Shown here piece by piece: positions 5,762 through 55,104 of a stretch of 64,000 nt of DNA. Origin of the DNA: a virus (Duplodnaviria; Caudoviricetes); the IMG/VR virus record IMGVR_UViG_3300048502_000142, positions 27,919-91,918 of that record. One strand, 5' to 3'. The translations under genes and the position numbers were made by a program. How positions within the stretch are numbered: the stretch's first letter is position 1; every line of letters starts with the position of its first letter. The notes under the pieces were generated by a model that was given only the letters and a program-made list of their open reading frames with translations, had not been told where the DNA came from and did not search any database.

Positions 5762-5947
5762 GATCTGTGCTCCAGCTGACTCGGGTTGTCTCTGACACTC
5801 ACCTTATACGTCCGGGAGGTGACCCGTGAGAAGTGGAAAAATCTAAAAATCTTTGGAGCCTCGGCCGAAACCGGACGGGCGTCGACGGGGAGGCCGGATT
5901 CCAGGGCGCCTGGAGGGGATCCAGGAGGTTCCGGGTAGGGAAGTAGC

Positions 5948-9135: not shown

Positions 9136-9137
9136 TC

Positions 9138-10118: not shown

Positions 10119-10147
10119 GGGATCGATCCTCGGACAGAAGGGAGAGA

Positions 10148-11350
10148 CTACGTACGACCGGAGCGCCCGGTGATCGGGTCACGCCCGAGCGGGTCGCCGG
10201 CCGCCATCTCCGCCCGCCACCTGGAGAACGACTTGCTCGTCGGGACGAACACGGAGGCGGTGTAGTCGGCCCACCCCTGCCCGGATATCCAGTCCAGGTA
10301 CTGCCAGAGCAGAGACGTCGACCCCTGCGCGAAGTCCGCAGGGGGTGTGGCCGCCTGCACCATTCGCCCGATCTCCAGCTGCATGGCCGCAAGGCACCGC
10401 GCGAGGTCCGCCTCGGAGGTCGCGCCGCGGACGGACAGCTCCCGCGCCTTCGGCATAATCTCGGCGAGGAAGTGCCTGGCCCGCCTGGACGGATCCCCGA
10501 GCCCGGCAAACGCGTCCTCCAGGACCTCTTGCACAGTCCTCTCCACCGATCCGTCGGCGTGCCCGTTCAGGCGAGCGGGAGGGCTGCGCCTGGCATCGTC
10601 GCGCGGCGCTCGCTCCTCCTCGTCAGCCCAGCCCTCCTGGTTGAGCCACGTCGCCATGTGGCAGGTGAACGTCTTGTCCTGTCCCGCGCGCTCCCGCGCG
10701 TACCGGACGACGCCGGCCGTCACCGTCTCCAGATCGGTCTTCTTCAGCGCCCGCCTGCACGCTATCCGGGCCGCTCCCTTCCCGACGTGCCGCGGGTAGA
10801 TCTGCCACAGCGCCTCGAACTCCGCCAGAAAGGCCACCTCCCTCGCCGAGGGTGCACGCCGGACGAACCCGTAGACCACCGGCACCGGCAGCCGGGGGGA
10901 TGCGCACACCTCGCGGACCTCCCCGTCCAACCCTACGAGGTGGACGGGAATGCCGCGCCGCAGCGCCCGGTGGTACGAACGCCAGGTGCAGCCGACCTCC
11001 TTCGGCTCCTCCGTCGACGGTGCGACGATCAGCTCGTCCACGGCCTTCACCAGGTCGATCGCGCAGGCGGGGTAGTCCCGCGCCGGCAGCCTCCTGGAGT
11101 CAGGCCGGCAGTCCCTGCACCGGCACAGCGGGTAATCGCCGACCCTGGCCGCGATCGTCGGCGGGTGCAGGATCATCGGGATGTGGCACGCAACGCATAT
11201 GTTGTGGAACACCTTGTCTCGGTGCAGGCCGTCCCCGTGGCGGCCTATCCAGCCGCCCCCGGAGTAGCGGGCGCGCACGAACTGCCGCACGGCCTTGACC
11301 TGCGCATCGGACATGCCCCGACTCGTGCCGACGAACCCGAAGTACCTCAT
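10148..11350 (-). CDS. SLOG (DprA/YspA-like) domain fused to a phage replication-initiator C-terminal domain
   Basis: N-terminal FGFVGTSRGMSDAQ...HGD...HPP...LVKAVDELIVAP...GCTW...RRGIPVHLV; then FEALWQIYPRHVGKGAA...HMATWLNQEGWADE. Confidence 0.7.
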   Translation of the reverse strand: MRYFGFVGTSRGMSDAQVKAVRQFVRARYSGGGWIGRHGDGLHRDKVFHNICVACHIPMILHPPTIAARVGDYPLCRCRDCRPDSRRLPARDYPACAIDLVKAVDELIVAPSTEEPKEVGCTWRSYHRALRRGIPVHLVGLDGEVREVCASPRLPVPVVYGFVRRAPSAREVAFLAEFEALWQIYPRHVGKGAARIACRRALKKTDLETVTAGVVRYARERAGQDKTFTCHMATWLNQEGWADEEERAPRDDARRSPPARLNGHADGSVERTVQEVLEDAFAGLGDPSRRARHFLAEIMPKARELSVRGATSEADLARCLAAMQLEIGRMVQAATPPADFAQGSTSLLWQYLDWISGQGWADYTASVFVPTSKSFSRWRAEMAAGDPLGRDPITGRSGRT

Positions 11351-11356
11351 CCCAAG

Positions 11357-11920
11357 TCACCGCCTCCGTCGAAGTCCGCGAGCGCGTCGTGCGTCCACCC
11401 CACCTTGGCGCCGGACCGGCGGACGAACCTGTACGCAGCCAACGCGCCCTCCTACGCTAACCCTGGCCGCGACGGCCAGTCGGTCGACGCGCTCGTTGTG
11501 CGGGTTCCCGCTGTGCCCGCGCACCCATCGCCAGTCCACTTCGTGCCTCCCGCTCACGGCCAGGAGGCGCTCCCACAGCTCCCGGTTCTTCACCAGCCTG
11601 TTGTCCCGCGTCCGCCACTGCCGCTTTACCCACCCGCGGATCCACAGCGTGATCCCGTTCTTCACGTACTGACTGTCGGTGTACAGCGTGACGGCGCAGC
11701 GCCACTTGAGTGCCTCCAAGCCGGCGATAGCACCCATCAGCTCCATCTGGTTGTTCGTCGCGCAGGGGTCGGAGCCGACGACCTCACGCTCCACGAGCCC
11801 GGTCTTATGCTCGTAAAGGAGGAGCGCGGCGAACCCGCCCGCGCCTGGATTGGGTAAACAGGATCCATCCGTGTAGATCCTTACCCGCGGGTGTCGCGGC
11901 AGCCTCTCGCTGTCAGGCAT
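11357..11920 (-). CDS. rnhA: Ribonuclease HI
   Basis: IYTDGSC..NPGAGG, TNNQMEL, TDSQYV, KNRELW, WVRGHSGNPHNERVDRLA; the C-terminal tail may be frameshifted. Confidence 0.95.
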   Translation of the reverse strand: MPDSERLPRHPRVRIYTDGSCLPNPGAGGFAALLLYEHKTGLVEREVVGSDPCATNNQMELMGAIAGLEALKWRCAVTLYTDSQYVKNGITLWIRGWVKRQWRTRDNRLVKNRELWERLLAVSGRHEVDWRWVRGHSGNPHNERVDRLAVAARVSVGGRVGCVQVRPPVRRQGGVDARRARGLRRRR

Positions 11921-29483: not shown

Positions 29484-30584
29484 TCACGGGTACGAACCGA
29501 GCGTGCCGGTGAACTCGTCGATTAGGACGATGCCGTTCATGCCGGCGCCGCCGTTCTGCGCGGTCTGTCCGTTGAACGAGTTCGCGCCGCCACCGCCCGC
29601 ACCGGGGCCGACGCCGGGGAAGCCGTCGACGGAGTTGCCGTCGCGCGCGCGGGCCGATGACCCACCGAACGGGCTGGAGCCACCCGCGCCAGACAGGGAA
29701 GGTCCCCCGCTGCCGAAAATGATAGCTGCGCCGCCCGGCGTGGTGCCGCCGTTGATCACGTTGCCGCCTGTCGACACGGTCGGGGTAGTGCCGGCGACGG
29801 TAAAGCCGTTTCCGGAGGCCGCGGACATCGTGTTGCCGCCCGCACCGCCCGGCGCCGTCAGGATCGATCCGATCGTGCTGGCCGTGCCGTTGTTGCCGTT
29901 GTTGGCGCCGTTGCCGGGCTGGGCGCCGCCCTGGCCTACGGTAACCGCCTGACTAGCCAGGGTAGAGGTTGCGTACACGCCCTCCAGGTAGGCACCGCCG
30001 TCGCCGCCGGAGCCCGAGGCGGCCTCGCCGGACGGCGTGGAGGGAACGCTCGCGCCGGAGCCGCCGCCGCCGCACATGCGGACGCGCACGAAGCCCGCCC
30101 CCGCCGACGACGTGTAGGTGCCGTTCGCGGTGAACACCTGCGTCCCGAGGTAGGTACCGGCGGCGGTCCCAAGTCGGGACTGCGTCCAGTTCGCCCCGCC
30201 CGTGTCCGGGTTCGACGTGTTGTTATCGGTCGTGCTCTGCCACAGGACGCCGGGCGTCGTCGCCGACTGGACGATGGCGCCGTTCGGGTACCCGCCGATC
30301 GTCGTCGACCAGGCCGAGTCCCACTTCCATATGCCGATCGCCTGGGACCACTGGAGGCCGGCGGTGGTCTGCTTGAGCAGTCCGTTGAAGTCCTTGCCGA
30401 AGGGTCCGGCGCCCCCCGAGGCGACGGGCACGAAGCAGTTCGGCGGGAAGCCATCGGTAAACGACGCGGCGCCGTTCGTGATCCCGATTTGTGAGGCCGT
30501 GGGGATCGGGTAGTTGATGTAGGATCCCCCGGCGCTGCTGCCGAACGGGAGCGGGATCTTCGGGGGGATGGCGGATGCGAGCAA
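29484..30584 (-). CDS. Tail fibre protein with glycine-rich C-terminus
   Basis: PKIPLPFG...GAASFTDGFPP...GKDFNGLL...IGGYPNGA N-terminal anchor; QVFTANGTYT...GGGGSG Gly-rich domain. Confidence 0.85.
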   Translation of the reverse strand: MLASAIPPKIPLPFGSSAGGSYINYPIPTASQIGITNGAASFTDGFPPNCFVPVASGGAGPFGKDFNGLLKQTTAGLQWSQAIGIWKWDSAWSTTIGGYPNGAIVQSATTPGVLWQSTTDNNTSNPDTGGANWTQSRLGTAAGTYLGTQVFTANGTYTSSAGAGFVRVRMCGGGGSGASVPSTPSGEAASGSGGDGGAYLEGVYATSTLASQAVTVGQGGAQPGNGANNGNNGTASTIGSILTAPGGAGGNTMSAASGNGFTVAGTTPTVSTGGNVINGGTTPGGAAIIFGSGGPSLSGAGGSSPFGGSSARARDGNSVDGFPGVGPGAGGGGANSFNGQTAQNGGAGMNGIVLIDEFTGTLGSYP

Positions 30585-40424: not shown

Positions 40425-42476
40425 CTACTGCACGGTGATCGAGGCGATGTTGATGCTCTGGATACTTCCACCATCGACCCAGTAGAAGGTGATCGGCGGA
40501 GACGTGCGGAGGCCGCGGACCTGCGCCGTCGCCGGCTTGATCTGGAGGTACCAGCCGCGCTGCTGGAGCACCGAGGCCGCGTCCAGCCCGGTCGCCTGGT
40601 TGACAGCCTGGATCTGCGCATCGGATAGCGTGACGCCCGCGACGATCGCCCCGAAGTTCACGGCGGCGAGGATCGGGTCGAGGCACCAGCTGTGGACCTG
40701 CGCGTAGCCGGGGTTGGCGTAGGGGACCGAGTTCGCCGCGGCGAGCCCGACCATCACCGCCTCTTGCAGGGCGTTGTTCAGCCATATCTGGTCGGTGTAG
40801 GTGTCGTCCCAGGTGAACGGGCCGGAGACGAAGCCACGCTGCCACTCGTTGAACCCCTGGCTGCGGGTCGTGTAGTCGCCGTAGAAGTTGATGCCGTTGC
40901 CGAACGTCCCGGCCTGCGGGTCGCCCCCGAGGTAGTCGGCGACCTGCCCGTTAGTCACGTCCGCGAGGCCGCCCGCGTAGGACTTGAACGCCGCGGTCTG
41001 CCGGCCGTTCTGCGCGTCGAAGTTCAGGGACGCCGCCCAGCTCATCGAGAAGGCGGCCTTCTCGCCCGCCAGCGTCGTGATCGCCGGGTTCGTCCAGATC
41101 ATGACCGTGCCCGACAGGTCGGCCGAGTTGATCTCCGCGGACGAGGCCGACGCAGGGGACTCCGTCGTGTCGAGGACGTTCGTTTCCCACATGCAGTAGC
41201 GGTAGCCGTTCTTCTGGGCGTTGGTCCACCAGGCAAACGACGAACTCTCGTTCGTCGACTTGTCCGCGTCGGTCGGCTCCCACGTCGTCATGAAGCTGAC
41301 CCAGTTCTGCGTCTGCTGGAGGATCGCGTTCATAAACGTGGCCGGCGACGAGGCGGCGGCGCCCGCCGAACTCGTGGCACCCGTCGACTGCGTGAGGTTG
41401 AGCGACGTCGCGAGGGCACCCGTGGCGAAGGCGACGGACGACGCGCTCCCCTGAGTACCCGAGTGGATCTTGAACGCCGAGTGCTGCACGCTATAGACGA
41501 CCGGGGATGCGTAGGAGGTCACCGTCTCGTTGGACTCGGACGTGGCCGCGGTCGATAGGGTATAGGTGCCGGTGCCGCCCGTCCCCGTCCCGAACGCCGC
41601 GACGTAGGTGTTGGCCGTGAGGCCGGTGCCGGCCACGACGTCGCCGAGGGCGATCACGGGCGCGGGGGCGAAGGCGGAAACGGTCACGCCCGTCTCGGCG
41701 GTCGGCGCCTGGGACAGCGTATAGGTGCCGGCGCCGCCGGGCGCGCCGTCGCCCTCGTAGGACAGGATCGTCGTACCCGCGGTAAGGCCGGTGCCGGTCA
41801 CGACCTGGCCGATCGCGAGGTACCCCTCCGTCACGCTCTCGACAACCATCAGGTTGCCCGAGACCTGGAGGTTGGCGACGGCGACAGCCTGCTGCGGACC
41901 CTGGATCAGGGCGGACACCGTCATCGTCGTGCCCGACAGGGAGGCGGTGAACTCGCCCTTCTGGATACCGGAGAAGCGGGAGCCGAGGGTCGTGCCGAGC
42001 GCGACGCCGATCAGCTCCGCGGCGTTCGAGAAGCTCGTCGCGGTCGCGAGGTTCACCGTCGCGGTCACCGGCGCGTTGCCGTCGACGACGACCGAGATCG
42101 ACTCGTCGAGCGCCTGGAGCTGCCCGAGGGAGATGCCGGCGGCCGAGCCACCGAGCAGGTAGCCGGGCGTGGCGTACAGCGAGTATTGGGCGGCGAGCAG
42201 CCCGCTCGGCGTCACCGTCGCGTTCGTGGGGCCGGTGAAATAGACGGCACCGAGACCCGCCTCCTGCGAGGTGCCGCCGAAGTAGCCCTCGACGTCGGTC
42301 AGGTCGTCGAAGAGCACGACGACGCCGGACGGTAGCACCGGGTATCCGTTGCGGTCGAGGTTCGCGTCGACGATCAGCCCCCAGAACTGGAGGGGCGACC
42401 CCCCGGCCGGGAGGACCGACGGGACGACGTTAACCAGTTGGCTGGCGGGAATTGCCGGAGTCACATTTGACGGCAT
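40425..42476 (-). CDS. Tail sheath protein (DUF3383)
   Basis: IPASQLVNVVPSVL...QNWVSFMTTWEP...ASLNFD..NGR..AFK...QIWLNNALQ...WVDGGSIQ. Confidence 0.9.
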   Translation of the reverse strand: MPSNVTPAIPASQLVNVVPSVLPAGGSPLQFWGLIVDANLDRNGYPVLPSGVVVLFDDLTDVEGYFGGTSQEAGLGAVYFTGPTNATVTPSGLLAAQYSLYATPGYLLGGSAAGISLGQLQALDESISVVVDGNAPVTATVNLATATSFSNAAELIGVALGTTLGSRFSGIQKGEFTASLSGTTMTVSALIQGPQQAVAVANLQVSGNLMVVESVTEGYLAIGQVVTGTGLTAGTTILSYEGDGAPGGAGTYTLSQAPTAETGVTVSAFAPAPVIALGDVVAGTGLTANTYVAAFGTGTGGTGTYTLSTAATSESNETVTSYASPVVYSVQHSAFKIHSGTQGSASSVAFATGALATSLNLTQSTGATSSAGAAASSPATFMNAILQQTQNWVSFMTTWEPTDADKSTNESSSFAWWTNAQKNGYRYCMWETNVLDTTESPASASSAEINSADLSGTVMIWTNPAITTLAGEKAAFSMSWAASLNFDAQNGRQTAAFKSYAGGLADVTNGQVADYLGGDPQAGTFGNGINFYGDYTTRSQGFNEWQRGFVSGPFTWDDTYTDQIWLNNALQEAVMVGLAAANSVPYANPGYAQVHSWCLDPILAAVNFGAIVAGVTLSDAQIQAVNQATGLDAASVLQQRGWYLQIKPATAQVRGLRTSPPITFYWVDGGSIQSINIASITVQ

Positions 42477-43791: not shown

Positions 43792-44223
43792 CTAGGTCGA
43801 GATCTCGTAGACGTTCGCGACCACGCGGAAGCCGGCCCCCACGAGCGCCTTCGCCGCGTGGACGTTCTGCAGCGTCAGTGTCGTCCGGACCCTGACACCC
43901 TCGCCGATCGCGCGGACCAGCTCCTCCAGCATGTGCCGGAGGATTCCGCGGCGGCGGTACTCGGGGTGGACGAAGGCGACGCCGATCGAGGCGCCGTAGA
44001 TCGGATCGACCGAGTACGTAATGATTCCGACGACGTGGTCGGAGTCGCCGAGCGACACCCTGGCGACGATAGCGGAGTCCGAGACGAGGAAGGCCGGCTG
44101 CGTCGGGTCGAACTGTTGCACCTCGATGAGCGCGGCGAGCGCGGTTACCGCGACGCCGTAGACCGGGGTTCCCCCCATCCTCGGGACGTTGACCGTCTCT
44201 AGCCTCAGGTCTCCCTCGGACAT
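43792..44223 (-). CDS. GNAT-family acetyltransferase
   Basis: AFVHPEYRRRGI acetyl-CoA motif A; N..A.K....AGF motif B. Confidence 0.8.
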   Translation of the reverse strand: MSEGDLRLETVNVPRMGGTPVYGVAVTALAALIEVQQFDPTQPAFLVSDSAIVARVSLGDSDHVVGIITYSVDPIYGASIGVAFVHPEYRRRGILRHMLEELVRAIGEGVRVRTTLTLQNVHAAKALVGAGFRVVANVYEIST

Positions 44224-44224
44224 C

Positions 44225-44626
44225 TCACCCCTCGCTCGTCGGATTCTGCAACACCGCGATGACGGAGCACCACCCGGTCTCGCCGTCCACCCCGTGCCCG
44301 TAGTCCTCGGTTACGACCGCGACCTTCCACTCGCTGCGGTCGGGGAAGACGATCAGGTCGTTGCCCTTACGCAGGCTGCGGATCATGCCGCTGTGCGCGC
44401 CCCACAGGTAGATTTTCCGCTTGGTCCCCTGGAGCCCGATGTTGGCGACGAGCCGGATGTCGTCCGACGACATGCCCTGGATCTGGGCGTTCATCGGAGA
44501 TGACGTGTATGTAGGGGTCCGCGAGAAGTCCGGGTTCTTGACGGTTCCCGTGTTCGTCTTCAGCGTCACCGGATGCATCGGGTTGACCGCGGCGACGACC
44601 GGCGCAACGACCGTGTGCAGGTTCAT
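44225..44626 (-). CDS. Head-tail adaptor/closure protein
   Basis: MNLHTVV...VNP...AQIQGMS..D...GLQGT.RKIYL.G...KGNDLIVF...W.V..V.E...W. Confidence 0.78.
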   Translation of the reverse strand: MNLHTVVAPVVAAVNPMHPVTLKTNTGTVKNPDFSRTPTYTSSPMNAQIQGMSSDDIRLVANIGLQGTKRKIYLWGAHSGMIRSLRKGNDLIVFPDRSEWKVAVVTEDYGHGVDGETGWCSVIAVLQNPTSEG

Positions 44627-44722: not shown

Positions 44723-45055
44723 TCACAGCAGTGCCGGCAGCACGATCGGCACGACGACCTTGGCGACGGAGAGCACGTCGGCGAGCCACTGCGGCGGCGT
44801 GTCGGACGGGAGGGAGGCGGAGACGGTACCGTCGGCGTTGCACGAGGCCGCGGCGTAAGACAGTGTGATAGCATCGGCCGATCCCGCTGGCGGAGGCACG
44901 ATCGACGGCGCGGCCTTGGCGTAGGCTTGGCAGAGCGTCGCGAGCGTAGCCTGCGAGGTGGCGACCTGTTGCGTCGTGCAAGCGGCTATCAGCACGATCG
45001 CCGCCGTGCCGAAGAGGCCGAGATAGCCGAAACGCTTTTCCCAACGTGGCATCAC
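44723..45055 (-). CDS. Lipoprotein (possible spanin component)
   Basis: Signal with lipobox LIAA-C; adjacent to lysis genes. Confidence 0.6.
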   Translation of the reverse strand: MMPRWEKRFGYLGLFGTAAIVLIAACTTQQVATSQATLATLCQAYAKAAPSIVPPPAGSADAITLSYAAASCNADGTVSASLPSDTPPQWLADVLSVAKVVVPIVLPALL

Positions 45056-45246
45056 ACTTCCTTCCTGATCGGCCCTATGGCCAATATCACGATGTCTAGC
45101 CCATCACCGCAATCTACGTTCACTGTACGGCCGGGTTCCACGTAGCGATGTACGACGCGGACGGATGTGGCAGCGCTTCGCCGCGTGCGCTGCTGCACCT
45201 CGACCGCTCCCATCTCCGGGGTTATGGAGACGGTGACGATAGGCAT
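45052..45246 (-). CDS. Hypothetical protein
   Basis: MPIVTVSITPEMG...; fits between neighbours. Confidence 0.5.
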   Translation of the reverse strand: MPIVTVSITPEMGAVEVQQRTRRSAATSVRVVHRYVEPGRTVNVDCGDGLDIVILAIGPIRKEV

Positions 45247-45248
45247 CC

Positions 45249-45527
45249 CTACGCTCCCGGGGAACGATCCGGAGGTACCTCGGATGCCGCCTGGGCGACG
45301 AGTGCGATGACGGCATTCGGGTCGGACGGTGCGGCCCGAGCCAGGAGCAGTGCGCGCGCCGCCTGCTTCTTCTGATACCACGACCACACGGCGGGCGCGA
45401 TCGACGTGGCGGCACCCGCGATCAGCTCCCAATCTGACGCCGTAACGAGATGGCTATGCGCGATCAACAGGCCGCCGATGCATGCCAGGACCGCGCGGAA
45501 GATGCCGAGGAATTGGTCCTGCGCCAT
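45249..45527 (-). CDS. Holin
   Basis: Two hydrophobic segments, WSWYQKK; next to the endolysin. Confidence 0.72.
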   Translation of the reverse strand: MAQDQFLGIFRAVLACIGGLLIAHSHLVTASDWELIAGAATSIAPAVWSWYQKKQAARALLLARAAPSDPNAVIALVAQAASEVPPDRSPGA

Positions 45528-45584
45528 GGCGCAACGTCCTTGAGAAAGAGGTCGGCGACGACTAGCCAGAGCCGCCAGATTACG

Positions 45585-45758
45585 TCAGTACCACCCGTAG
45601 CCGTAGTGACCGACCCCGCCGAATAGGGCAAGGACCAGGATCACGAGGAGGATCAGGCCCAGCGGGTTCGCCCCGAGGCCGCCGAAGCCCGCCCCGTAGG
45701 CGTGCCAGCCCCAGCCGCCGCCGAAGAGCAGGACGATAAGGATAATGAGCAAGAGCAT
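45585..45758 (-). CDS. DUF3309-like small membrane protein
   Basis: Not in ORF track. MLLLIILIVLLFGGGWGWHAYGAGFGGLGANPLGLILLVILVLALFGGVGHYGYGWY*. Confidence 0.72.
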   Translation of the reverse strand: MLLLIILIVLLFGGGWGWHAYGAGFGGLGANPLGLILLVILVLALFGGVGHYGYGWY

Positions 45759-45770
45759 TTCAAGGACTCC

Positions 45771-46397
45771 CTACGCCGCCGCCGGGAGGTCCGGGACGGG
45801 AACCGTGAACTGGGTCGGGTCGCCGCCCTGCGCGAGGTAGTCAAGTGCGTTATAGCCGCGCGTGTTGCGATTGACCGGCGCAGGTTCGCCCTCCATCGTG
45901 CACTCGTCGCGAGCCGTCGCCCAGTCGCCGTTGTTGATAGCGGCCGTAAAGTGGGGAAAGATGGGCGGGTAGCCCGGCCCCATCCCCCAGGCGAGGGACA
46001 TGACCGCCCATCGCGCATTCGGCGGCAGCGTCGGGAGGTCAGGGAAGTAGCGCATCAGCACCTGCGCGTTCGAGTCGTACTTGGCTGCGACGAGTGACGC
46101 CTCTGACGGCGGCGACAGGCGGAGAGACGTGACCGTCTGAGCGTAGAGAGCGCCCCGGCGCCCCATCTCGACGTTGCCGTTGACCATGTTCCACTCGGCG
46201 ACAATGGCGTCCTGCGTCGCCGGCTGACCCGTCCTCGCGTCGATCCACGGCAGCGTCAGCGCAACGTCGAGCGGCACGTAGTCGCCCTCGCCGGTCGTGA
46301 CGAGCGGCGGGACGTGGGTATCGGCGTACATCCAATACTCCACGCCCTCTAGGTCGGAATTCGTGTTAATCCATGTATCACGGACGATATCGCTCAT
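45771..46397 (-). CDS. Endolysin, lysozyme (GH24-like)
   Basis: EGVEYWMYADT....VTTGEG catalytic E/D/T pattern; FPHFTAAINNGDWATARDEC; start MSDIVRD. Confidence 0.8.
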   Translation of the reverse strand: MSDIVRDTWINTNSDLEGVEYWMYADTHVPPLVTTGEGDYVPLDVALTLPWIDARTGQPATQDAIVAEWNMVNGNVEMGRRGALYAQTVTSLRLSPPSEASLVAAKYDSNAQVLMRYFPDLPTLPPNARWAVMSLAWGMGPGYPPIFPHFTAAINNGDWATARDECTMEGEPAPVNRNTRGYNALDYLAQGGDPTQFTVPVPDLPAAA

Positions 46398-46453
46398 ATC
46401 CGAATACCCATACAAAGTGGGGTGTTGAGATTTGGCGGGGCATTGCTTATCCC

Positions 46454-46666
46454 TCACACATGCCGCATCAATAGCGTGATCAGCATCCCAATCGTAGTGC
46501 CCATCCCCGTGACCATAATCCCAACGAGCCACGCCCACCTGGATGCGCAGGTCGCCTCGTGATCATTGATGCGCTGCATCGCCTGCCTTGCAATCTGCAT
46601 CGCGAGCGCCGCCTCGGTAGCCGTAGAGCGATGCTCATGCTGTTCGTATACGGTTTCGGCTGGCAT
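46454..46666 (-). CDS. Small membrane protein
   Basis: HEATCASRW followed by a C-terminal TM helix. Confidence 0.55.
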   Translation of the reverse strand: MPAETVYEQHEHRSTATEAALAMQIARQAMQRINDHEATCASRWAWLVGIMVTGMGTTIGMLITLLMRHV

Positions 46667-46689
46667 CGGTTCCCTCGCAGGCCCTAGTG

Positions 46690-47061
46690 TTACGAATGAC
46701 CCCAATAATGTAACAAAACAATCGAGCCTAAAGCAACAAGGGCACCGAATAGCCATTGAATCAACGATAGATTTCTCGCGGATGCCAATCGGCCACCTTG
46801 ATTGGCAAATCGTTCTTTCTGCAATTCGTCGATCGAGCGCTCTATCGCTCCCAATCGTAAATCAAGCTCCAGCCTCGGCACGGTAGCAGAGGCATTCGCC
46901 TGAATCATGTTCAAGAGGCCGTTATGCGCCTCGAATTTTTCGGCCTGCGCCACTCCTGCCGTTTTCACTGCCATCTCGCTCGCGGCGAACCGCTGCTCGT
47001 ACCTCTTGTCCCGCTCGTCGATCAGCTCGCGGATAGCGCGGAACTGGATCTTGACGCCCAC
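46690..47061 (-). CDS. Coiled-coil membrane protein (start uncertain)
   Basis: IDERDKRYEQRFAASEMAV...C-terminal TM. Confidence 0.55.
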   Translation of the reverse strand: MGVKIQFRAIRELIDERDKRYEQRFAASEMAVKTAGVAQAEKFEAHNGLLNMIQANASATVPRLELDLRLGAIERSIDELQKERFANQGGRLASARNLSLIQWLFGALVALGSIVLLHYWGHS

Positions 47062-47231
47062 GGTATTAGCGACCGCCGCCGATATCGCCGACCTTGGCTT
47101 CGAGAAAGTCATAGGTGATGGCCGCCACCGCAACAGTTACCATCGCCGTCGCGATATGACCGATATTGAGCGACCAGAATCCCGGACCAGTGGTGTTCAT
47201 CTCGGCCATAAGTCGGGACCCCTGCGCAGGA

Positions 47232-47498
47232 CTACTTCTTCGACTGTGCCGGAGGTTGCGATGCGGCCTGCTGCGCCTGAAGCTGCTTCAAGATCTCCTG
47301 CGATGCCGCGCGCACGTCGGATGCCTTTTGGTCCGACCCCGCCATGGCGTTCAGGATAAATTGCCAGTAGGCAACGGGAAGTTTGACGGCGAATTCCGTA
47401 GGCGGTTGGGGAGCGACCGGCTCAGATGGGGTCGCGGGAAGCGGGGCGGCTGCGCAGGCACCGAGGGCGATAGGCATCAGCAGGAAGAGGCGCTTCAT
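47232..47498 (-). CDS. Small lipoprotein
   Basis: MKRLFLLMPIALGA-C lipobox; AAGGAG SD. Confidence 0.7.
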   Translation of the reverse strand: MKRLFLLMPIALGACAAAPLPATPSEPVAPQPPTEFAVKLPVAYWQFILNAMAGSDQKASDVRAASQEILKQLQAQQAASQPPAQSKK

Positions 47499-47558
47499 AG
47501 TTTTCTCCTTGAGATTGAGATTAAGATAGAAAAGACATCGAGTTCCGGGGTAGCCGCC

Positions 47559-47984
47559 TTAGTTCACCGTCCCGCCCGTCAGATCGCTGTTTGGCACCGG
47601 CTTCATCGAGGAGGTCTGGTGCCCGGTCGCGTCGAGGATCGGATTTCCGTTGGAATCGACATCGGGGAGCAATTGCAGCGTCGTCCCGACCAGCCAAGTG
47701 TCGATGAGTGGCACGGTCGGCGCAGCACCGACCGCAGAGAGAGGGGCTACTACGGATTCGCAAGACACGAAGGCCGCCGGGACGGCCGCTGCCGCCTGCG
47801 TGACGTAATGGCAGACCGAGATCGTCACGACGTTGTTGATCAGGTCGACCGTGTAGACCGTCGGCTGATGCCACGTCGTCGCGATGCCGTTCGGCAGCGT
47901 CAGCGACATGGAGATGCCAGAGGCTAGCGCCGGTAGGGGCGCCAGCGCGAGCAACAGGGCGGTCAGGATGCTGCGGATCTTCAT
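47559..47984 (-). CDS. Secreted hypothetical protein
   Basis: MKIRSILTALLLALAPLPALA signal peptide; GAGGAG SD; two Cys. Confidence 0.75.
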   Translation of the reverse strand: MKIRSILTALLLALAPLPALASGISMSLTLPNGIATTWHQPTVYTVDLINNVVTISVCHYVTQAAAAVPAAFVSCESVVAPLSAVGAAPTVPLIDTWLVGTTLQLLPDVDSNGNPILDATGHQTSSMKPVPNSDLTGGTVN

Positions 47985-47999
47985 TTTCCACTCCTCGGA

Positions 48000-49634
48000 T
48001 CAGGTGCCGCCGCCGGTATAGGTGGTCGAGGTCAGCGAGTTGCCGCGCACGGACGAGTAGGCGATCGCCTGTTTTACGTCCGCGTAGCACCAGTCGGCCG
48101 CATAGGTCTGGTCCGTGAACCCGACGCACGTCCGCACCGTGTTGAGCGCGTTGCCCACCAGCGTCGGATTGGTGGTCGTGACCGTCGTCGAGCCCAGGCT
48201 GTAGGTGATCGAGCCGCCCGTGGTGCCGGAATAGATGTAGGCCGCGGCGCCGCTAGGCGCGCTCGGCGAGTAGAGCCAGTCGCGCTGTTCGGAGTCGGTA
48301 ATGCTGTTGCTGACGATCCCGTCCGATGCCGTGCCGGAGAAGAGCGGGTCGGCGAAGCCGTAGGGCGCGACTCCAGCGGCGCAGTTGGTCAGGGCACCCG
48401 TTGCCGGCACGGCGATGTTCATCGAGAAATGCACGTCGTTTGACGACGCGCTGTGCAGCTCCGCACAACTGCCGTTGGCGTAATACGGGTTCTGGAGATT
48501 GTGCCAACAGACATTGTTGCGGATCGACGCGTGGGCACCGTACTGCGAATAGCCGAAGCCCGCGTAGTAGGGCGCGCCGGACATGTGGAAGACCTGGACG
48601 CACGCGCCATCGACCCCGGCGACGACATTACCCTCGAACACGATGTTGCCGGTATACGTCCGATATTGGTACGGCGTCCCGTTGACCGGCAGGTGTCCTT
48701 CCTGGCAGCCGCACAGATTGTCGATGATCAGGCCATTGCCGTCGCTATCGGACGTGCTGCTGCCGTCGCATCCGTGCGCCGTGCCGGTATTGCCGTAGAT
48801 CAGGTTGTGGTAGATCCAGATCGGGTGCTGGAAATCGCCCGTGTAGTACCCGTGGTACGAACTGTGATTGTCGTAATCCATCAGCCCGAAGGCGTCGATG
48901 TTCGACGGGCAGGTGCTGGAGTTTCCGGCGGCGGCGTTGAAGACGACGTTATCGTGCCACTGCTGGTAGTCGGCGCTGTACTGGTAGGTCGGCTGGGTGC
49001 CGGTCGGCGTGCCGGTGGGAACGGTGCCGGAGACCGCCGGCACAGTGCCGGTCGGGCACGTGCTGCGCACCGTCGCGATGCCGCCGAGGATCGCCGGCCC
49101 GATGATGTTGTTGGTGATCTCGTCGTCGATCGGGGCGGGGCTCGGCGACGACGGGCAGGACGGCGAGGATGGAAACGCCTGTATTAGGATCGCCGGCCCG
49201 TTGGTGTTGCTGACGTTGAGGCACTTGATCGTCCAGTGCGACTGCGTGAGCTGGAGCGCGCCGTAGGATGCGCTCGTGCCGGTGATGATGCCCTGAAGGC
49301 AAACGTCGGCGGTGAGCGTCGCACGACCGCTGGTGTAGTTGACGGCCGGCAGGTTGAAATAGCCGGTCCCCTCGTTGTAGGCGCCGCCGGCCGTGTAGAT
49401 CATGATCGTATCGACGGACTGCACCGTGTGGCTAGTGCCGGACCCGGCTGCCGTGCACCAAGGGGTCGCGCTGGATTGCGCCTGCGTGTAGGTGTAGCTG
49501 TCGCTGCACGTCGGGCCGCTCAGGCCGGCGGAGATCCAATAGGTAGCCGCGAGCGCGACCGATATGGATTTCAGGAGCGCGCCGACGCCGATTGATAGCG
49601 CCAGCGCCCAGCGGATCATCGGATGACGCACCAT
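48000..49634 (-). CDS. Secreted right-handed beta-helix (pectin-lyase-like) protein
   Basis: Signal peptide ending VALA/ATYWIS; Asn-ladder repeats ITNNII, WHDNVV, IYHNLI, FEGNVV, IRNNVC; DGNGLIID; many Cys. Confidence 0.78.
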   Translation of the reverse strand: MVRHPMIRWALALSIGVGALLKSISVALAATYWISAGLSGPTCSDSYTYTQAQSSATPWCTAAGSGTSHTVQSVDTIMIYTAGGAYNEGTGYFNLPAVNYTSGRATLTADVCLQGIITGTSASYGALQLTQSHWTIKCLNVSNTNGPAILIQAFPSSPSCPSSPSPAPIDDEITNNIIGPAILGGIATVRSTCPTGTVPAVSGTVPTGTPTGTQPTYQYSADYQQWHDNVVFNAAAGNSSTCPSNIDAFGLMDYDNHSSYHGYYTGDFQHPIWIYHNLIYGNTGTAHGCDGSSTSDSDGNGLIIDNLCGCQEGHLPVNGTPYQYRTYTGNIVFEGNVVAGVDGACVQVFHMSGAPYYAGFGYSQYGAHASIRNNVCWHNLQNPYYANGSCAELHSASSNDVHFSMNIAVPATGALTNCAAGVAPYGFADPLFSGTASDGIVSNSITDSEQRDWLYSPSAPSGAAAYIYSGTTGGSITYSLGSTTVTTTNPTLVGNALNTVRTCVGFTDQTYAADWCYADVKQAIAYSSVRGNSLTSTTYTGGGT

Positions 49635-49636
49635 GG

Positions 49637-52579
49637 TCAGAGTGCCATGCAGTTCACGGCAACGAGATCGCTTGCCGTAAATGCCGTCGCGACGGAGATA
49701 TCGCTATAGTTCGTTATAACTACGCTGGTCGTGGTCTGCGATCCGCTCGGGGCCTGTCGCTGCACGGCAATCGACGTGGACTGCGTCGTAAGATCGTTAG
49801 CCATGCAGTTCCAGCCATTCGATGCCGCCGGCATCGTAATCGTGCATGCGCTGCCTGGGGACGTGCCGACGTTGATGCGGAATGCCGCAGTACCATTGTT
49901 GGAGTTCATGGCGGCACCCGAACCTCCGCACCCGGCTGATGCGATGGACGGCTGGGTGGACGACTCCAGCAAGTTGGTAACAAAGAGTTGCCCGGGGATC
50001 TGAACGTTGGTCGTGCCGCTCAGGACTTCGAGTGCGGCAGCGCCGGAGTGGTTCTCGAGGGTTACGTCCGCGGTCGAGGCGTAACCTTGAAGGATCGAGC
50101 CGAGCGTCGCGCTGAGGTACAGCGCGCCGTTGCCGCCACTGACGAGCGTCGGGGCTCCGGCGATGCCCGTCACCGACATCAGGCCGGCGGACTGCGTGCC
50201 GTAGCCGGTGCCTTTGGTCTGGAATACGATGTTGGCGCTGACGTAGGTGCCGGTGATGACGAGCGGCGTCACATTGCCAATCGTCACGTTGTTCATCGAG
50301 CCGGCCGTCGCCGGGTTAATCGTCACGATGCCCGTGCCGGTCGGCGAAAGCACGTCGTTGACGTTCGCGCCGCTGGCCGTGAAGCCGCCGTTCGCGGCCA
50401 GGGAGCCGGTCAGAACGTTCTGGGCGGTGCTGGTCTCCCAATAGCCATAGTTCGTCGAGGACGCGCCGCCGTTGCCGTCAATCACAAGCCCAGCGTCAAC
50501 CGTGGTGGCAGAATTGCCGGTTCCGAGAGTTAAATATGCCCCGTAGTTGTGGACGATGCCGCCGGTTCCCGCGGCACCTGTCGCACCCGCATCGCGGAAG
50601 GCGTAAGCGTTTGCCTGTCCCGTCGTAATAGTATTACCCCAGGAGCGCGCGTCCGAAAGGAACCCGATGAGGTTCCCTGACTGCGCCGCAGACCCACTAT
50701 CGGTAAGGTTCTGCGCCTCGTAATAGGTGAGCGCCGGATGCGTGCCGGTGTAGGTGCTGTCGATGTTTAGCTGCGTCAGGGTGCCTTCAAAATTGACCTG
50801 CGCGTTTGTCGCGTTGCCAAGATGAGGCGACAACAGAACGGCGTAGCTCGACGTAACGACGGTCGGCGCCTGTATCGCGGTAATCGCGAGCGAGCGGCTA
50901 GCACCGGAGGAGGCGGTTGCGGCGTTCGTGCCATTGATTAGAAACTGATCAAGATTATCGTTCGTATTGCCGCTAGTAACCTGGAGTCCTGCCCCAAATG
51001 ACGTAAGCCCGGATGCCGCCGTACTCCACGCTGCGGTGCCATTCGCGCAATATCCGATAGAGTTGGTCGCGAGCTTGTATAGGCCAGTAGCACTATCACC
51101 AAAGGTCAATGCGGGGCCGGGGCATGCTCCAGCTTCATTTACGAGTTGCCCTGTCAGCGTGCAATTCGATCCGCCGATCAGCGCGCAGTAGGCCGATGCC
51201 GCCTGCCCGGCCATCGTGCCGAACAACGTCCCGCCGCCGTAGCTGTTGACCGTCGTGACGCCGGACGCGTTGTTCGTCACGTCGCCCGTGAACGTCGTCG
51301 CCGTAACGGTCGAACCGGACGACGCATACATCGGAATCTGGCCGGCCGTGCCGGACGGGATCGTCCCGCCGCCGCACGCGCCCCACGACGGGTTAGCGCC
51401 GGTGCCTCCGGTCTGGAGACAGTTGCCGGACGTGCTAGGCACCAGCACGGCCCAATTGGAAGCACCGCGATAGAGGATGTCGCCCTGCGCCAGACCGATC
51501 GTGTCGAGCAGCGACGTGAGCGTCGTCGCGGCCGGCGCCGCGCTCGATCCCGTCGAGTTGCCTAGCAGCGAGCCCGATGCGATAGACGGAAACGTCGGCA
51601 GCGTCGAGTAGGTCCATGTGCCCGAGGCCGTCGGCGACCCCGAGAGGGTGCCAGACAGCGCCGCCCCGTTGATGGTCGGCGTGGTCAACGTCTTGTTCGT
51701 CAGCGTGTCGGTCGTGGCGCGACCAACGAGCGTATCCGTCGCGGCGGGCAGCGTCAGCGTTCCTGACGCCGTCGCCGCAGCATTCAGCGTGGTCGAGCCC
51801 GAGGTCGAGCCCGCGAGCGCGAGATCGCCGCTGTTGTGCGTCTGGACTCCGGACCACGTGTTCGCCGCGTTCAGTAGCGGGATCGTGGCGCCGCTCGTGC
51901 CGGTGTTTTGCGTGGCGGCCGTGCCGAGCCCGAGGTTCGTGCGCGCGGTCGAGGCACTCGCCAAATCGGACAGGTTGTTCGATTGAGCCAATGCCCCGAT
52001 ATTGTTAGCCGCCGTCGCCCCGGCAGCAGTTGCACCCGTGCCGCCGTTGGCAACCGACACCGGCGAGGCGAGCGCGAGCGTGACGACACCCGGACCCGAG
52101 CCGCCGCCGGTCAGGCCGTTGCCGGCAACGACCGACGTGACGGCGCTGCCGCCGCCAGGGATCGCCAGGATCGGGACGAGCACCTGCTGTGACGTCCCGA
52201 GGGCGAACGTCTCCGTTCCGGACGAGTACGCCGAGATGTTAACGCGACAGGAGATGAAGTTTCCGACGTTGGCCGCGTAGAACCCGTCGCCGGTCGCCGA
52301 CGTAACGGGGGTCGAGGCCGGTGCAGCCGGCGAGGACATCGCCACCGTCTGCCAGACGTTGTTCTGGTCGAGGCACTGGAGGCCCCACGTCAGGGACGCC
52401 GCGCCCGTCGCCGCGACGGACATCGTCGCCGGGGGCTGCTGGTACGGGAAGTTCCAGGTAATCGTCCCGGTCGCGGTGATCGGGACGGGCTGACCCTGCC
52501 ACGTGACGGCCGCCGCCTCCGCCGCCGAGCCGAGAGCCAGCGACAGGATGAGGGCGGCGACGGTTCGGAAGATGTTCAT
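49637..52579 (-). CDS. Tail-fibre-like protein (980 aa) with N-terminal signal peptide
   Basis: MNIFRTVAALILSLALGSAAEA; fibre motifs VANGGTGA, NNLSDLASASTARTNLGLG, TDTLTNKTLT, GDILYRGASNW. Confidence 0.8.
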   Translation of the reverse strand: MNIFRTVAALILSLALGSAAEAAAVTWQGQPVPITATGTITWNFPYQQPPATMSVAATGAASLTWGLQCLDQNNVWQTVAMSSPAAPASTPVTSATGDGFYAANVGNFISCRVNISAYSSGTETFALGTSQQVLVPILAIPGGGSAVTSVVAGNGLTGGGSGPGVVTLALASPVSVANGGTGATAAGATAANNIGALAQSNNLSDLASASTARTNLGLGTAATQNTGTSGATIPLLNAANTWSGVQTHNSGDLALAGSTSGSTTLNAAATASGTLTLPAATDTLVGRATTDTLTNKTLTTPTINGAALSGTLSGSPTASGTWTYSTLPTFPSIASGSLLGNSTGSSAAPAATTLTSLLDTIGLAQGDILYRGASNWAVLVPSTSGNCLQTGGTGANPSWGACGGGTIPSGTAGQIPMYASSGSTVTATTFTGDVTNNASGVTTVNSYGGGTLFGTMAGQAASAYCALIGGSNCTLTGQLVNEAGACPGPALTFGDSATGLYKLATNSIGYCANGTAAWSTAASGLTSFGAGLQVTSGNTNDNLDQFLINGTNAATASSGASRSLAITAIQAPTVVTSSYAVLLSPHLGNATNAQVNFEGTLTQLNIDSTYTGTHPALTYYEAQNLTDSGSAAQSGNLIGFLSDARSWGNTITTGQANAYAFRDAGATGAAGTGGIVHNYGAYLTLGTGNSATTVDAGLVIDGNGGASSTNYGYWETSTAQNVLTGSLAANGGFTASGANVNDVLSPTGTGIVTINPATAGSMNNVTIGNVTPLVITGTYVSANIVFQTKGTGYGTQSAGLMSVTGIAGAPTLVSGGNGALYLSATLGSILQGYASTADVTLENHSGAAALEVLSGTTNVQIPGQLFVTNLLESSTQPSIASAGCGGSGAAMNSNNGTAAFRINVGTSPGSACTITMPAASNGWNCMANDLTTQSTSIAVQRQAPSGSQTTTSVVITNYSDISVATAFTASDLVAVNCMAL

Positions 52580-52582
52580 GTG

Positions 52583-53125
52583 CTACCCCACCTGCCAGAA
52601 GAACGACGCGGGACTACCCGTCTTGACGAACGGACCGGTCGTCGAGAACGCGGCGACGATGCCGTTCGTGAACTGGAGGGGGCGCGCGAACTCCCGCTCG
52701 TAGCCGCCCTCCGTCCCGCTCGACGGGACGTAGACGGCGTAGGCGAGCGTCCCCGGGGCGACCGCGCCGTCGGACGGGACCGTCGCCGCGTCGATCAACA
52801 GCAGCCAGCCCGACGTCGCGCCGATCGCCACGGAGATCGACAGGAGGGCCGCGGCGGCGTTCGACAGGAGGTGCGCGTCCTCCGCCTGCGCCGAGGCGCC
52901 CCACGCGAACGCCGCGTCGAGCGTCGGCATGGGGTAGGACGGCCCGAGGATCTCCTCCGGGCTGCCGTCCGAGCCGCCGCCGACGTCGAGCAGGAACGCC
53001 TGCGTCTTCGCCCCCGAGTTCGCCGTCTTCTGGACGGTGCGGACGACGTCTCCGCCGGCCCCGGGATTTAGCTGGGTATTGTCACTGGGCAACGCCGTCT
53101 TCCTCGATTTAGAGATGTCCGACAA
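52583..53125 (-). CDS. Putative virion protein
   Basis: DNTQLNPGAGGD...PLQFTNGIVAAFSTTG. Confidence 0.65.
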   Translation of the reverse strand: MSDISKSRKTALPSDNTQLNPGAGGDVVRTVQKTANSGAKTQAFLLDVGGGSDGSPEEILGPSYPMPTLDAAFAWGASAQAEDAHLLSNAAAALLSISVAIGATSGWLLLIDAATVPSDGAVAPGTLAYAVYVPSSGTEGGYEREFARPLQFTNGIVAAFSTTGPFVKTGSPASFFWQVG

Positions 53126-53369: not shown

Positions 53370-53612
53370 CTAGAAAGGGATGTCGTAGTCGAAGCGGCCG
53401 GTCACGGTATTGCGGTAGTTCCGGCCGCGGGAGCAACCGCAGGACTTCTGGTTGCCGACGATCAAGTTGAAGCCGCTGACGACCGTCTCGGCCCCGCACT
53501 CGCACCGACAACGCCAGTAGCGGTAGCGGGAGGCCGAGAGGTGGGAGAACGCGAGGACTGTGAGCCTGTAAAATACCCTGCCGACGAGGTCGATGTTGTA
53601 GGACAGGCTCAC
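53370..53612 (-). CDS. Truncated HNH/AP2-associated Cys-repeat protein
   Basis: DLVGRVFYRLTV...WRCRCECG...NL..G..KSCGC; no nuclease domain follows. Confidence 0.65.
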   Translation of the reverse strand: MSLSYNIDLVGRVFYRLTVLAFSHLSASRYRYWRCRCECGAETVVSGFNLIVGNQKSCGCSRGRNYRNTVTGRFDYDIPF

Positions 53613-54154
53613 TTCTTCGTGGACTCCCACCAGCCGGAGACGGTCCAGTCGACGGAGTTCAGCATATGTCCGGTGTCGATCAGCGGCCGATCGTGCTTCT
53701 TCTTGCTCTTCGACTTGCTGCTGTAACGCGCCATACGCCGAGCAACGGTCACGCCTGCAAGAGGCTGCCAAGGGCCGATCCGGATCGATCTCTGAAGCTG
53801 TCCCTTCATGACGGCTCCCAGGCGGTTAAGCGCCCTGACCGCGTCGTACTTGCCCTTCACGAGTTCGACGGCGAGCAGGGGCGCCCACCCGGAGGACTCC
53901 GCCTTGATCATATTCGTGAAGAACGGGCGTGGCGGGATGTTGCGCCGGGGGGCGCCGAAGTTCTGTATGGCCGCGATCATCGCGACGGGCTTGCCGTCCG
54001 GGTAGGTGGCGCCCGCGAGGAAGCCGACCTTGAGAGTGGACCCGTTGCGGAGCTTGTCCGACACGCCCTCCAGAAAGGCCTTGAGCTTCTGACCCCCCTG
54101 CACGCTGTTCGCGCTGTTGGTGGACGAAAGGGAGACGCCCCACCCGGATGCCAC
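53609..54154 (-). CDS. Neck/virion morphogenesis protein
   Basis: LKVGFLAGATYPDG.PVAMIAAIQNFGAP..NIPPRPFF...PLIDTGHMLNSV. Confidence 0.85.
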   Translation of the reverse strand: MASGWGVSLSSTNSANSVQGGQKLKAFLEGVSDKLRNGSTLKVGFLAGATYPDGKPVAMIAAIQNFGAPRRNIPPRPFFTNMIKAESSGWAPLLAVELVKGKYDAVRALNRLGAVMKGQLQRSIRIGPWQPLAGVTVARRMARYSSKSKSKKKHDRPLIDTGHMLNSVDWTVSGWWESTKK

Positions 54155-54720: not shown

Positions 54721-55104
54721 CTACAGGAAGGGGACCCACATGAACGAGACGACGAGCGTGCCGTTCAGCGCCGCGGAGGCATGGATGTTCTGGAGTAGGA
54801 CCGTGATCACGCCCGCGGCGGTTACGGCCGCCGTCGCGACGACCGGGGTGCCGGTGGTAGCTGACCCGTCGCGGACGGAGGCGAACACGATGTCGCCGAC
54901 GGACACGAGGCTGTCGTCGATCGTCAGCGTCGCGGTGCCGCCCGCCGCCGTCGTAAGCGACGTCGTCGTCACCCTGCCGACGGGGGCGTTGACGGTCGCG
55001 GTGCCGGCGCCGGAGCCCGTGGCGGTCGCGGAGCCGGCGGCGCCACCCTGGATCTGCTGGAGGCTCAGGTCGCCGATAGACGTGAAGATAGTCGGGTTGG
55101 GCAC
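54721..55104 (-). CDS. Putative head fibre/decoration protein
   Basis: GRVTTTSLTTAAG...NIHASAALNGTLVVSF; GGAGG SD. Confidence 0.65.
   Translation of the reverse strand: MPNPTIFTSIGDLSLQQIQGGAAGSATATGSGAGTATVNAPVGRVTTTSLTTAAGGTATLTIDDSLVSVGDIVFASVRDGSATTGTPVVATAAVTAAGVITVLLQNIHASAALNGTLVVSFMWVPFL

Follow-up and report, generated by a model that had tools for sequence, protein, structure and literature searches.

What is a run of four genes for exported proteins, one of them resembling a tail fibre, doing in the late operon of a tailed phage? The question is raised by positions 47,232 to 52,579 of a 64,000-nucleotide stretch of viral DNA (hereafter the window), which comprises bases 27919-91918 of the 91,918-base IMG/VR virus record IMGVR_UViG_3300048502_000142, a record of linear class with an estimated completeness of 90%. 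As an earlier reading from the letters alone (the sequence-only reading) had it, four consecutive open reading frames (ORFs) lie there between the neck genes and the lysis cassette. All four are on the minus strand. We call them p980, p544, p141 and p88; the names give protein length in residues, and coordinates are window positions (Table 1). Tailed phages are taken to fold their host-recognition proteins, and to assemble them, in the reducing cytoplasm, and the same reading had pointed to a separate, ordinary tail fibre in the late arm, which PHROG tail-fibre families indeed match. Export and disulfide folding of the block proteins are well supported by sequence comparison. As to what the block does, we lean tentatively, giving it a little less than an even chance, towards an exported accessory module that acts on envelope glycans around lysis.

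The signals noticed at the outset are present on all four proteins, three of the Sec type and one a lipobox. They were called with a home-made rule (n-, h- and c-regions plus an AXA or lipobox pattern) rather than a trained predictor. For Sec and signal peptidase I this asks for a basic n-region, then for some 10-17 uncharged hydrophobic residues as the h-region, and for small side chains at -3 and -1; for lipoproteins it asks for [LVI][ASTVIG][GAS]C closing a short hydrophobic segment. With a slash at the predicted cut, the N-termini read MNIFR-TVAALILSLALGSAAEA/A in p980 (n-region charge R5; cut AEA/A), MVRHPMIR-WALALSIGVGALL-KSISVALA/A in p544 (R3, R8; ALA/A) and MKIR-SILTALLLALAPLPALA/S in p141 (K2, R4; ALA/S), whilst p88 begins MKR-LFLLMPIA-LGAC, its lipobox ending at Cys15. 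The h-regions are uncharged and span 13-17 residues, and p980, p544 and p141 each have the sequence features of Sec substrates cut by signal peptidase I. Such starts are rare in this genome: the rule flags 6 of the 108 crude gene calls in the 92-kb record, namely the four, the spanin-like lipoprotein p110 and one weak case. The chance of a run of at least four among five to six positives in 108 genes is 7e-5 to 2.5e-4. GC content at third codon positions (GC3) is 0.74-0.87 for the four genes overall and 0.76-0.92 across their first 25 codons, and this high early GC3 indicates that the hydrophobic N-termini are coding. The first in-frame start past the hydrophobic segment is at codon 53 in p980, 71 in p544, 26 in p141 and 52 in p88.

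Homologues keep the signals, both in the p980 family and in the one relative of p544. Among 5.8 billion proteins, about 20 of the best 31 relatives of p980 begin with a signal or a lipobox (P0003, P0005 and P0008-10 are examples). Classical fibres lower in the same match list, with starts such as MAGYTRQS... and MATQVQFRRGTT..., carry none. P0003, the single full-length homologue, is 49% identical to p980. For p544, an exhaustive HMMER search returned a sole relative, P0122 (33% identity), which is signal-bearing; it starts ...SSAEA/TDYY, and its alignment to p544 opens just past the predicted cut.

A protein family encoded just past the neck gene in related phages has members with and without a signal. 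A 25-residue signal is present in two contigs (L013:11008-11613 and L016:10902-11546) and absent from two others (L011:2613-3167 and L003:10458-11060). The signal-less forms start M-x-x-T-M-F-T-P-I-G-D, and in the signal-bearing forms the signal sits right before this motif (...AYA/ANTTFFTSIGD); the signal-less versions thus open, at (T/M)F-T-(S/P)-I-G-D, on the residue that follows the predicted cut in the others. This exact placement suggests that in this lineage signals have been added as discrete modules. A window protein, p127, has the same start motif and no signal.

Cysteine content provides a further line of evidence. The closely spaced cysteine pairs reported for both large proteins are there: p980 has 12 cysteines (including 387/402, 465/473, 486/511 and 912/925), p544 has 16 (including 43/60, 308/310, 376/390 and 503/516) and p141 has 2. 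Cysteine density was dropped as an argument for export (crude signal-less genes have 1.42 cysteines per 100 residues versus 1.2 in p980); as density is uninformative within the genome, we relied on parity. The mature cysteine count is even in all 30 signal-bearing proteins of the p980 family (28 of 28 with any cysteine; 26 independent clusters) against 22 of 54 signal-less members (Fisher 2e-8). A separately fetched set from viral contigs gave the same contrast, with even counts in ten of ten proteins with a signal versus 11 of 35 without (Fisher 1e-4). Oxidative folding outside the cytoplasm predicts exactly this linkage. Between p980 and P0003, neighbouring pairs have been gained or lost together (387/402, 465/473, 652/655, 706/715), whilst 486/511 is kept. 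Three independent lines (conservation, cysteine parity and the family with and without signals) thus argue that the signals are genuine, and four proteins that carry export signals would almost certainly fold outside the cytoplasm.

The fibre character of p980, first recognised from its repeats, is borne out by comparison with known fibres. Annotated tail fibres from phages of Klebsiella, Escherichia, Shigella and Sinorhizobium align with residues 199-271 (tblastn 1e-8 to 5e-6), and the family profile matches a solved structure, 'short tail fiber gp92', in the PDB. Similarity to known tail fibres is confined to residues ~165-335, and neither Pfam nor PHROG gave a family match. The fibre of phage phiM6, which shares the repeat, starts without a signal. 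Between stalk and tip lies a shaft of about 500 residues that is 52% identical to P0003, where the tip has been mostly replaced; over 120 residues the p980 tip is 37% identical to that of a signal-bearing 729-residue fibre on the viral contig L130. The domain behind the signal (the N-domain) had no match in any fetched locus, in the related phages or among the phage's own proteins. AlphaFold2, given p980 and eight relatives, returned a model of low confidence (predicted local distance difference test, pLDDT, 32.5), with strands in the 118-residue N-domain. A single-protein scan of viral contigs with p980 found no relatives, and a collection of 50,697 cultured phage records held no close signal-bearing one; the nearest relatives are mostly alphaproteobacterial.

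For p544, the proposed pectin-lyase-like beta-helix has moderate support. Family and structure databases gave nothing (Pfam even at E 10, PHROG, NCBIfam, and PDB sequence and profile searches), a word-indexed search for relatives of p544 and p141 came back empty, and a single-protein scan of viral contigs with p544 was likewise empty. Look-alikes in the Atlas point the other way. In its language-model features all ten family-bearing matches fall in the beta-helix clan (score 0.93), and a structure search with an ESM model (predicted template modelling score 0.66, pLDDT 0.53) returned hits at template modelling (TM) scores of 0.52-0.63, nearly all Beta_helix/Pel9A or unnamed clusters, the nearest of them acidobacterial. 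AlphaFold2 with p544 and its one homologue gave no usable fold (pLDDT 29.5). By its Atlas look-alikes p544 is likely to be a right-handed beta-helix protein. The sequence-only reading had spoken of exported, disulfide-bonded fibre or depolymerase components; export and disulfides stand, on the signals in homologues and the parity of the cysteines, but depolymerase activity is unsupported because the beta-helix fold is only a lead. Comparison by hhalign related p544 neither to the large hot-spot proteins of related phages nor to those of the metagenome contig L099. A receptor-masking decoy would be expected to have its tip in common with one of the fibres of this phage, and neither p980 nor p544 was found to share anything with them.

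The genomic setting is that of an insert. Eighteen related viral contigs were retrieved through the neck protein. In the compact relatives (L014, L015, L017, L018) the homologue of p133 follows Neck1 by 6-12 nt and is itself followed by the homologue of p279 and the sheath gene; the window has 9 kb between Neck1 and p133, filled by a zinc-ribbon ORF, p70, p180, the block itself, the tail-anchored membrane proteins p147 and p100, and the lysis cassette. This near-contiguity in relatives identifies the block and the lysis cassette as an insert in a variable hot spot. Elsewhere the same hot spot is filled differently: in L003 and L005 it holds more than 10 kb of large signal-less proteins, and L011 has proteins of 697 and 747 residues between p133 and p279.

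Within the insert, p180, p980, p544 and p141 are tightly packed, with successive gaps of 3, 2 and 15 nt; the p544 ATG lies 2 nt past the p980 stop. The C-terminal 100 residues of p180, itself signal-less, match an ORF on the metagenome contig L101 that has a signal and lies immediately ahead of a p980-like fibre gene, likewise signal-bearing. Neither p180 nor the p980 N-domain resembles any neck or baseplate protein in the relatives' loci or in this phage. In a sequence scan, promoter- and terminator-like motifs were no commoner on the coding strand than expected by chance. Of a moron, an accessory gene transcribed independently, one expects a promoter and terminator of its own and deviant composition; p980 and p544 are coupled to their neighbours, and p88, p147 and p100 have lower GC3 (0.74, 0.63 and 0.63), that of p147 and p100 being well under the 0.86-0.95 seen in core structural genes. 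Pfam, PHROGs and NCBIfam gave no match for the four proteins, p180, p147, p100 or p255.

The lower GC3 of p88, together with the AT-rich spacers of 60 and 98 nt that flank it, leads us to read the four genes as two units. By its composition p88 seems to belong to a membrane cassette that was acquired separately, and not to anchor p980; p147 and p100 were probably acquired together with it. These two sit between p88 and the candidate endolysin and have neither homologues nor family matches. The mature part of p88 has a Pro-rich N-terminal portion and a helical-looking C-terminal portion, which with the lipobox recalls the outer membrane (OM) spanins LysC of P2 and that of phiCbK (PMC3556154). 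The gene arrangement is not that of a two-component spanin, as the downstream p147 and p100 have C-terminal anchors, and p88 has no neighbour that would serve as an inner-membrane partner anchored at its N-terminus. We also considered p141 and p88 as a spanin pair and rejected it, p141 being unlike a coiled-coil inner-membrane subunit. The Atlas gave no usable match for p88, and no homologue of it was detected.

Signal-bearing fibres recur well beyond this phage. A scan of one genome per species for the stalk motif found 79 loci in many phyla; by crude gene calls (longest ORFs weighted by GC3), many of the motif-bearing ORFs have signals. In five annotated bacterial loci (Table 1) the signal-bearing fibre lies one or two genes past tail genes, and on the viral contigs L121, L183 and L110 it follows J-like proteins, before or after the lysis genes; viral contigs place it either beside lysis genes or where the tail module ends. 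Nine of nine inspected contexts also encode, alongside, a tail-tip or fibre-type protein without a signal (J-like, H-like or a large upstream protein), which implies that the signal-bearing fibre is always an extra. On L130 (IMGVR_UViG_3300001979_000002, 4923-11630), which is P2-like, baseplate genes W, J and I are followed by a signal-less 405-residue H-type fibre, the signal-bearing 729-residue fibre, a signal-bearing 87-residue coiled-coil protein, a methyltransferase-like gene, an endolysin and a lipoprotein. L099 (metagenome contig Ga0335085_10017116, 268-10455) has a row of four or five large signal-bearing proteins, four of which, consecutive and of 337, ~375, 605 and 684 residues, start with Sec-type signals; the first of them carries the fibre repeat; further on lie a 680-residue repeat protein, a small membrane or coiled-coil protein and a cadherin-like protein with a twin-arginine-type signal.

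We propose that the block is an accessory late 'envelope' module, inserted with the lysis cassette at the junction of the neck gene with the core structural gene that normally follows it. p980, p544, p141 and the signal-less p180 would form one translationally coupled unit. The first three of these would cross the inner membrane by Sec, be cut by signal peptidase I and fold with disulfides in the periplasm; because they leave the cytoplasm, they would not be built into the particle there. p980 would give a long, presumably trimeric fibre with a small four-Cys tip, and p544 a beta-helix protein of a polysaccharide-binding or polysaccharide-cutting kind. p88 would belong with the low-GC3 membrane genes and the lysis machinery rather than with the fibre. 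From the periplasmic side the exported proteins would bind or cut glycans of the host surface or matrix; after the burst, as free, oxidation-hardened proteins, they may ease release and spread or curb re-adsorption to debris. The signals and their conservation, the cysteine signature and the insertion at a hot spot are shown by the sequences; the trimer, the glycan target, the timing and the role are what we infer. We favour the accessory role because the insert lies beside lysis genes and includes two orphans, because this phage already possesses a tail fibre, and because signal-bearing fibres elsewhere are extras.

Several points weigh against this proposal. p544 has no enzymatic motif or family match, and its fold comes from embeddings and a mediocre ESM model. 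A 980-residue fibre is costly as a free protein, and a free adhesin could compete with progeny for receptors; the p980 tip is unlike the phage's own fibres and so gives no direct hint of a shared receptor. p980 and p544 lie where host-recognition parts would be expected, the large signal-less proteins in the relatives' hot spot may be virion fibres or spikes, and p180, being signal-less and coupled to p980, could be a virion-side adaptor. The sequence-only reading had offered two fates, entry into the virion at lysis or display as an appendage that the lipoprotein anchors. The first would be a two-compartment assembly of the virion, in which p980 and p544, oxidatively folded in the periplasm, dock at lysis onto particles built in the cytoplasm, perhaps through p180 near the neck, once holin, endolysin and spanin have opened the envelope. 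We consider such docking unlikely, yet it is the rival to be taken most seriously. The genes are in the structural operon just past the neck gene, and relatives place large signal-less proteins at the same spot; in many prophages a signal-bearing fibre occupies the usual fibre position behind J or the baseplate. Some signal-bearing relatives (P0017, P0023, P0073) carry a terminal S74 chaperone domain, as virion fibres typically do, the post-signal N-domain is the most divergent part, as a partner-specific docking domain would be, a p180-like gene precedes the p980-like gene on L101, and in the post-neck family of L013 and L016 the signal falls exactly ahead of the start of the signal-less versions. 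Against it, no tailed phage is known to assemble in this way, the phage owns a full signal-less tail and fibre, and most relatives manage without the block. All nine contexts include a fibre or J-type protein that lacks a signal, the p980 N-domain and p180 are unlike any neck or baseplate protein, and the time for mixing at lysis is short.

Were p980 instead displayed on the infected cell as a surface appendage, perhaps held by p88, it might alter adhesion or block superinfection. Exported OM proteins encoded beside fibre genes do act as exclusion factors (lambda lom, T5 Llp, Cor), and a lipoprotein gene lies two genes downstream of p980. The architecture, too, with a signal, an N-domain of about 120 residues, a fibre stalk and a variable tip, is that of the surface fibres of Bdellovibrio discussed below (PMC10769870). 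We nevertheless regard display as improbable, for a route across the OM is neither encoded nor evident, the genes appear late and are coupled to structural genes, and p88 was probably acquired separately, to judge from its composition and spacers. The N-domain has no sequence match in the fetched Bdellovibrio loci, and with no integrase in a record of this completeness lysogenic conversion is unlikely. Least probable of all, and in our view very improbable, is that nothing is exported and that the N-termini are structural helices or mis-called starts of cytoplasmic virion or accessory proteins. The export call does rest on a home-made rule, and single-chain AlphaFold models were uninformative. 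All four N-termini, however, have classic n-, h- and c-regions with AXA or a lipobox, early GC3 is high, alternative starts lie far downstream, homologues keep their signals whilst the mature parts align, and the strict link between signal and even cysteine count lacks a cytoplasmic explanation. The accessory module therefore remains our preferred reading.

How new is such a system? The sequence-only reading had called it undescribed. As far as we searched, no such phage system is in print, but Sec-exported, phage-fibre-like trimers have been described as the mosaic adhesive trimer (MAT) fibres of Bdellovibrio bacteriovorus (Caulton et al. 2024; PMC10769870), and these are the closest described system. 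MAT proteins (PMC10769870) and p980 share a signal, a domain directly behind it (beta-rich, conserved and of ~130 residues in MAT; of 118 residues, with strands in a low-confidence model, in p980), a long stalk resembling phage tail fibres and a variable tip. An S74 chaperone-protease end is found in only some MATs, and the signal-bearing relatives of p980 are split in the same way. The differences are that MATs are surface-displayed products of chromosomal genes in a predatory bacterium whereas p980 lies in a phage late operon between neck and lysis genes, that p980 is without an S74 domain, and that its N-domain matches none of the Bdellovibrio loci L070, L080, L083 and L096 by sequence. On these comparisons p980 is MAT-like in architecture and not a member of the MAT group.

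Ordinary fibres and tailspikes (Klebsiella phage RaK2/K64-1, Sinorhizobium phage phiM6, the T5 L-shaped fibre, the K1F endosialidase) share the fibre-repeat stretch, and the pairing of p980 with p544 resembles a fibre and tailspike set. They differ in being signal-less (phiM6 and the lower match list were checked), in having few cysteines of random parity and in being attached to the baseplate inside the cytoplasm. Lambda Lom and Bor, T5 Llp and the Cor proteins of phi80 and N15 are Sec- or Lol-targeted phage envelope proteins encoded at variable spots by host-recognition or lysis genes. They are small OM proteins or lipoproteins, not fibres, are mostly expressed from prophages or early, and have known roles in exclusion or serum resistance. 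In Porphyromonas phages, Sec signals on genes of unknown function have been read as marking envelope modifiers (Matrishin et al. 2023; PMC10367356); that report names capsid proteins, spanins and unknown genes, not fibres or tailspike-like proteins. Our search of the printed literature found no signal peptides on phage fibres or tailspike-like proteins.

If the accessory reading is true, phages widely make exported, oxidation-hardened adhesins and glycan-active proteins for envelope and lysate, a neglected class with a bearing on phage spread in polysaccharide-rich soils and on the search for stable depolymerases and binders. If docking is true, part of a virion is made outside the cytoplasm and the textbook picture of assembly changes; this two-compartment route, undescribed for tailed phages, could be widespread in soil phages, since many prophages and viral contigs likewise encode a signal-bearing fibre in a fibre position. 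Cysteine parity offers a simple sorter of exported and cytoplasmic fibres in sequence data, and cultivable carriers (Bryocella elongata DSM 22489, with locus L086 at about 379-399 kb of NZ_FNVA01000006.1, and Rhizobium lusitanum P1-7, with locus L028) render the question testable.

Table 1. Features of the four-gene block, of its surroundings in the window and of loci with signal-bearing fibres elsewhere.
Feature	Position	Strand	Evidence or remark
p980, Sec-signal fibre-like protein, 12 Cys	49637..52579	-	ORF, signal rule, tblastn, homologues
p980 signal peptide, residues 1-22	52514..52579	-	AEA/A by heuristic; GC3 of first 25 codons 0.92
p980 N-domain, residues 23-140 (118 residues, 2 Cys)	52160..52513	-	least conserved versus P0003, 24% identity
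p980 fibre-repeat stalk, residues 141-335	51575..52159	-	VANGGTGA, NNLSDL..ARTNLGLG, TDTLTNKTLT; 64% identity to P0003
p980 tip, residues 871-980 (110 residues, four Cys)	49637..49969	-	
p544, Sec-signal protein, 16 Cys, probable right-handed beta-helix	48000..49634	-	one homologue, P0122
p141, small Sec-signal protein, one Cys pair, orphan	47559..47984	-	
p88, lipoprotein with lipobox LGAC	47232..47498	-	
p180, signal-less, translationally coupled to p980	52583..53125	-	stop, 3 nt, ATG
Zinc-ribbon-like ORF	53370-53771	-	overlaps Neck1 3' end in another frame
Neck1/tail-completion gene	53609..54154	-	phrog_222, E 1e-44; upstream border of variable hot spot
p127	54721-55104		start motif of post-neck family, no signal
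p147 and p100, coiled-coil proteins	46454..47133	-	single C-terminal membrane anchor each; GC3 0.63
Lysis cassette: p255, p57, holin, p110	44723..46538	-	
p255, candidate endolysin	45771-46538	-	E-x8-D-x5-T-like stretch (LEGVEYWMYADTHVPPLVTTGEG) by eye
p57	45585-45758	-	57 residues, Gly/Leu-rich, double-hydrophobic
Holin	45249-45527	-	PF23987, 3.7e-12
p110, lipobox LIAAC and hydrophobic C-terminal 20 residues	44723-45055	-	unimolecular-spanin layout, T1 gp11 type
p133, conserved structural gene, downstream hot-spot border	44225..44626	-	phrog_1912, 1.9e-28; synteny in 15 relatives
GNAT acetyltransferase gene	43792-44223	-	second hot spot, p133-p279
Tail sheath	40425-42476	-	late arm
Ordinary signal-less tail fibre	29484-30584	-	late arm; PHROG tail-fibre families, E down to 3e-40
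Head genes		-	late arm; DUF2213-type maturation protease, minor and major head proteins, DUF4054 protein
Further tail genes		-	late arm; chaperone, tape measure, baseplate hub
L020, Devosia metagenome-assembled genome (MAG)			fibre after central tail fibre J; phrog_31, 1e-108
L063, acidobacterial MAG			fibre after tape measure and J-like protein
L036 and L045 (Rhizobium lusitanum)			fibre after baseplate wedge genes
L086, Bryocella elongata			fibre after tail protein

The late region of this contractile-tailed phage is a minus-strand arm at about 27 to 63 kb of the window. No tyrosine integrase was found in the whole record, which is 90% complete by estimate, and the phage that encodes p980 is apparently a lytic myovirus.

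In the lysis cassette reported beside the block, the holin is confirmed. The candidate endolysin p255 matched nothing in Pfam, PHROGs, NCBIfam or the PDB; a weak match to it lies beside a signal-bearing fibre in L091 and, with the motif seen by eye, points to a lysozyme. p57, between candidate endolysin and holin, might from its sequence be a second holin or an antiholin-like membrane protein. Downstream of the holin, with one short unannotated ORF between, p110 combines a lipobox with a C-terminal membrane segment in the manner of T1 gp11-type unimolecular spanins (PMC3556154).

At the upstream edge of the insert, the ORF that overlaps Neck1 fills the 252-nt 'gap' between Neck1 and p70. Its CxCxC...CGC zinc-ribbon-like motif (RCRCECGAE...SCGCS) makes a small mobile or regulatory gene possible. 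A second hot spot, between p133 and p279, holds the acetyltransferase gene in the window. In L006, L007/L008, L010 and L012, small two-Cys signal-bearing proteins lie just past the p133 homologue, in L006 and L010 before p279. The corresponding gap of L013 (12153-15894) holds a 571-residue protein with a Sec signal and a 674-residue protein with a twin-arginine signal (MRRREFLTGAAALAAYA), neither with a Pfam match.

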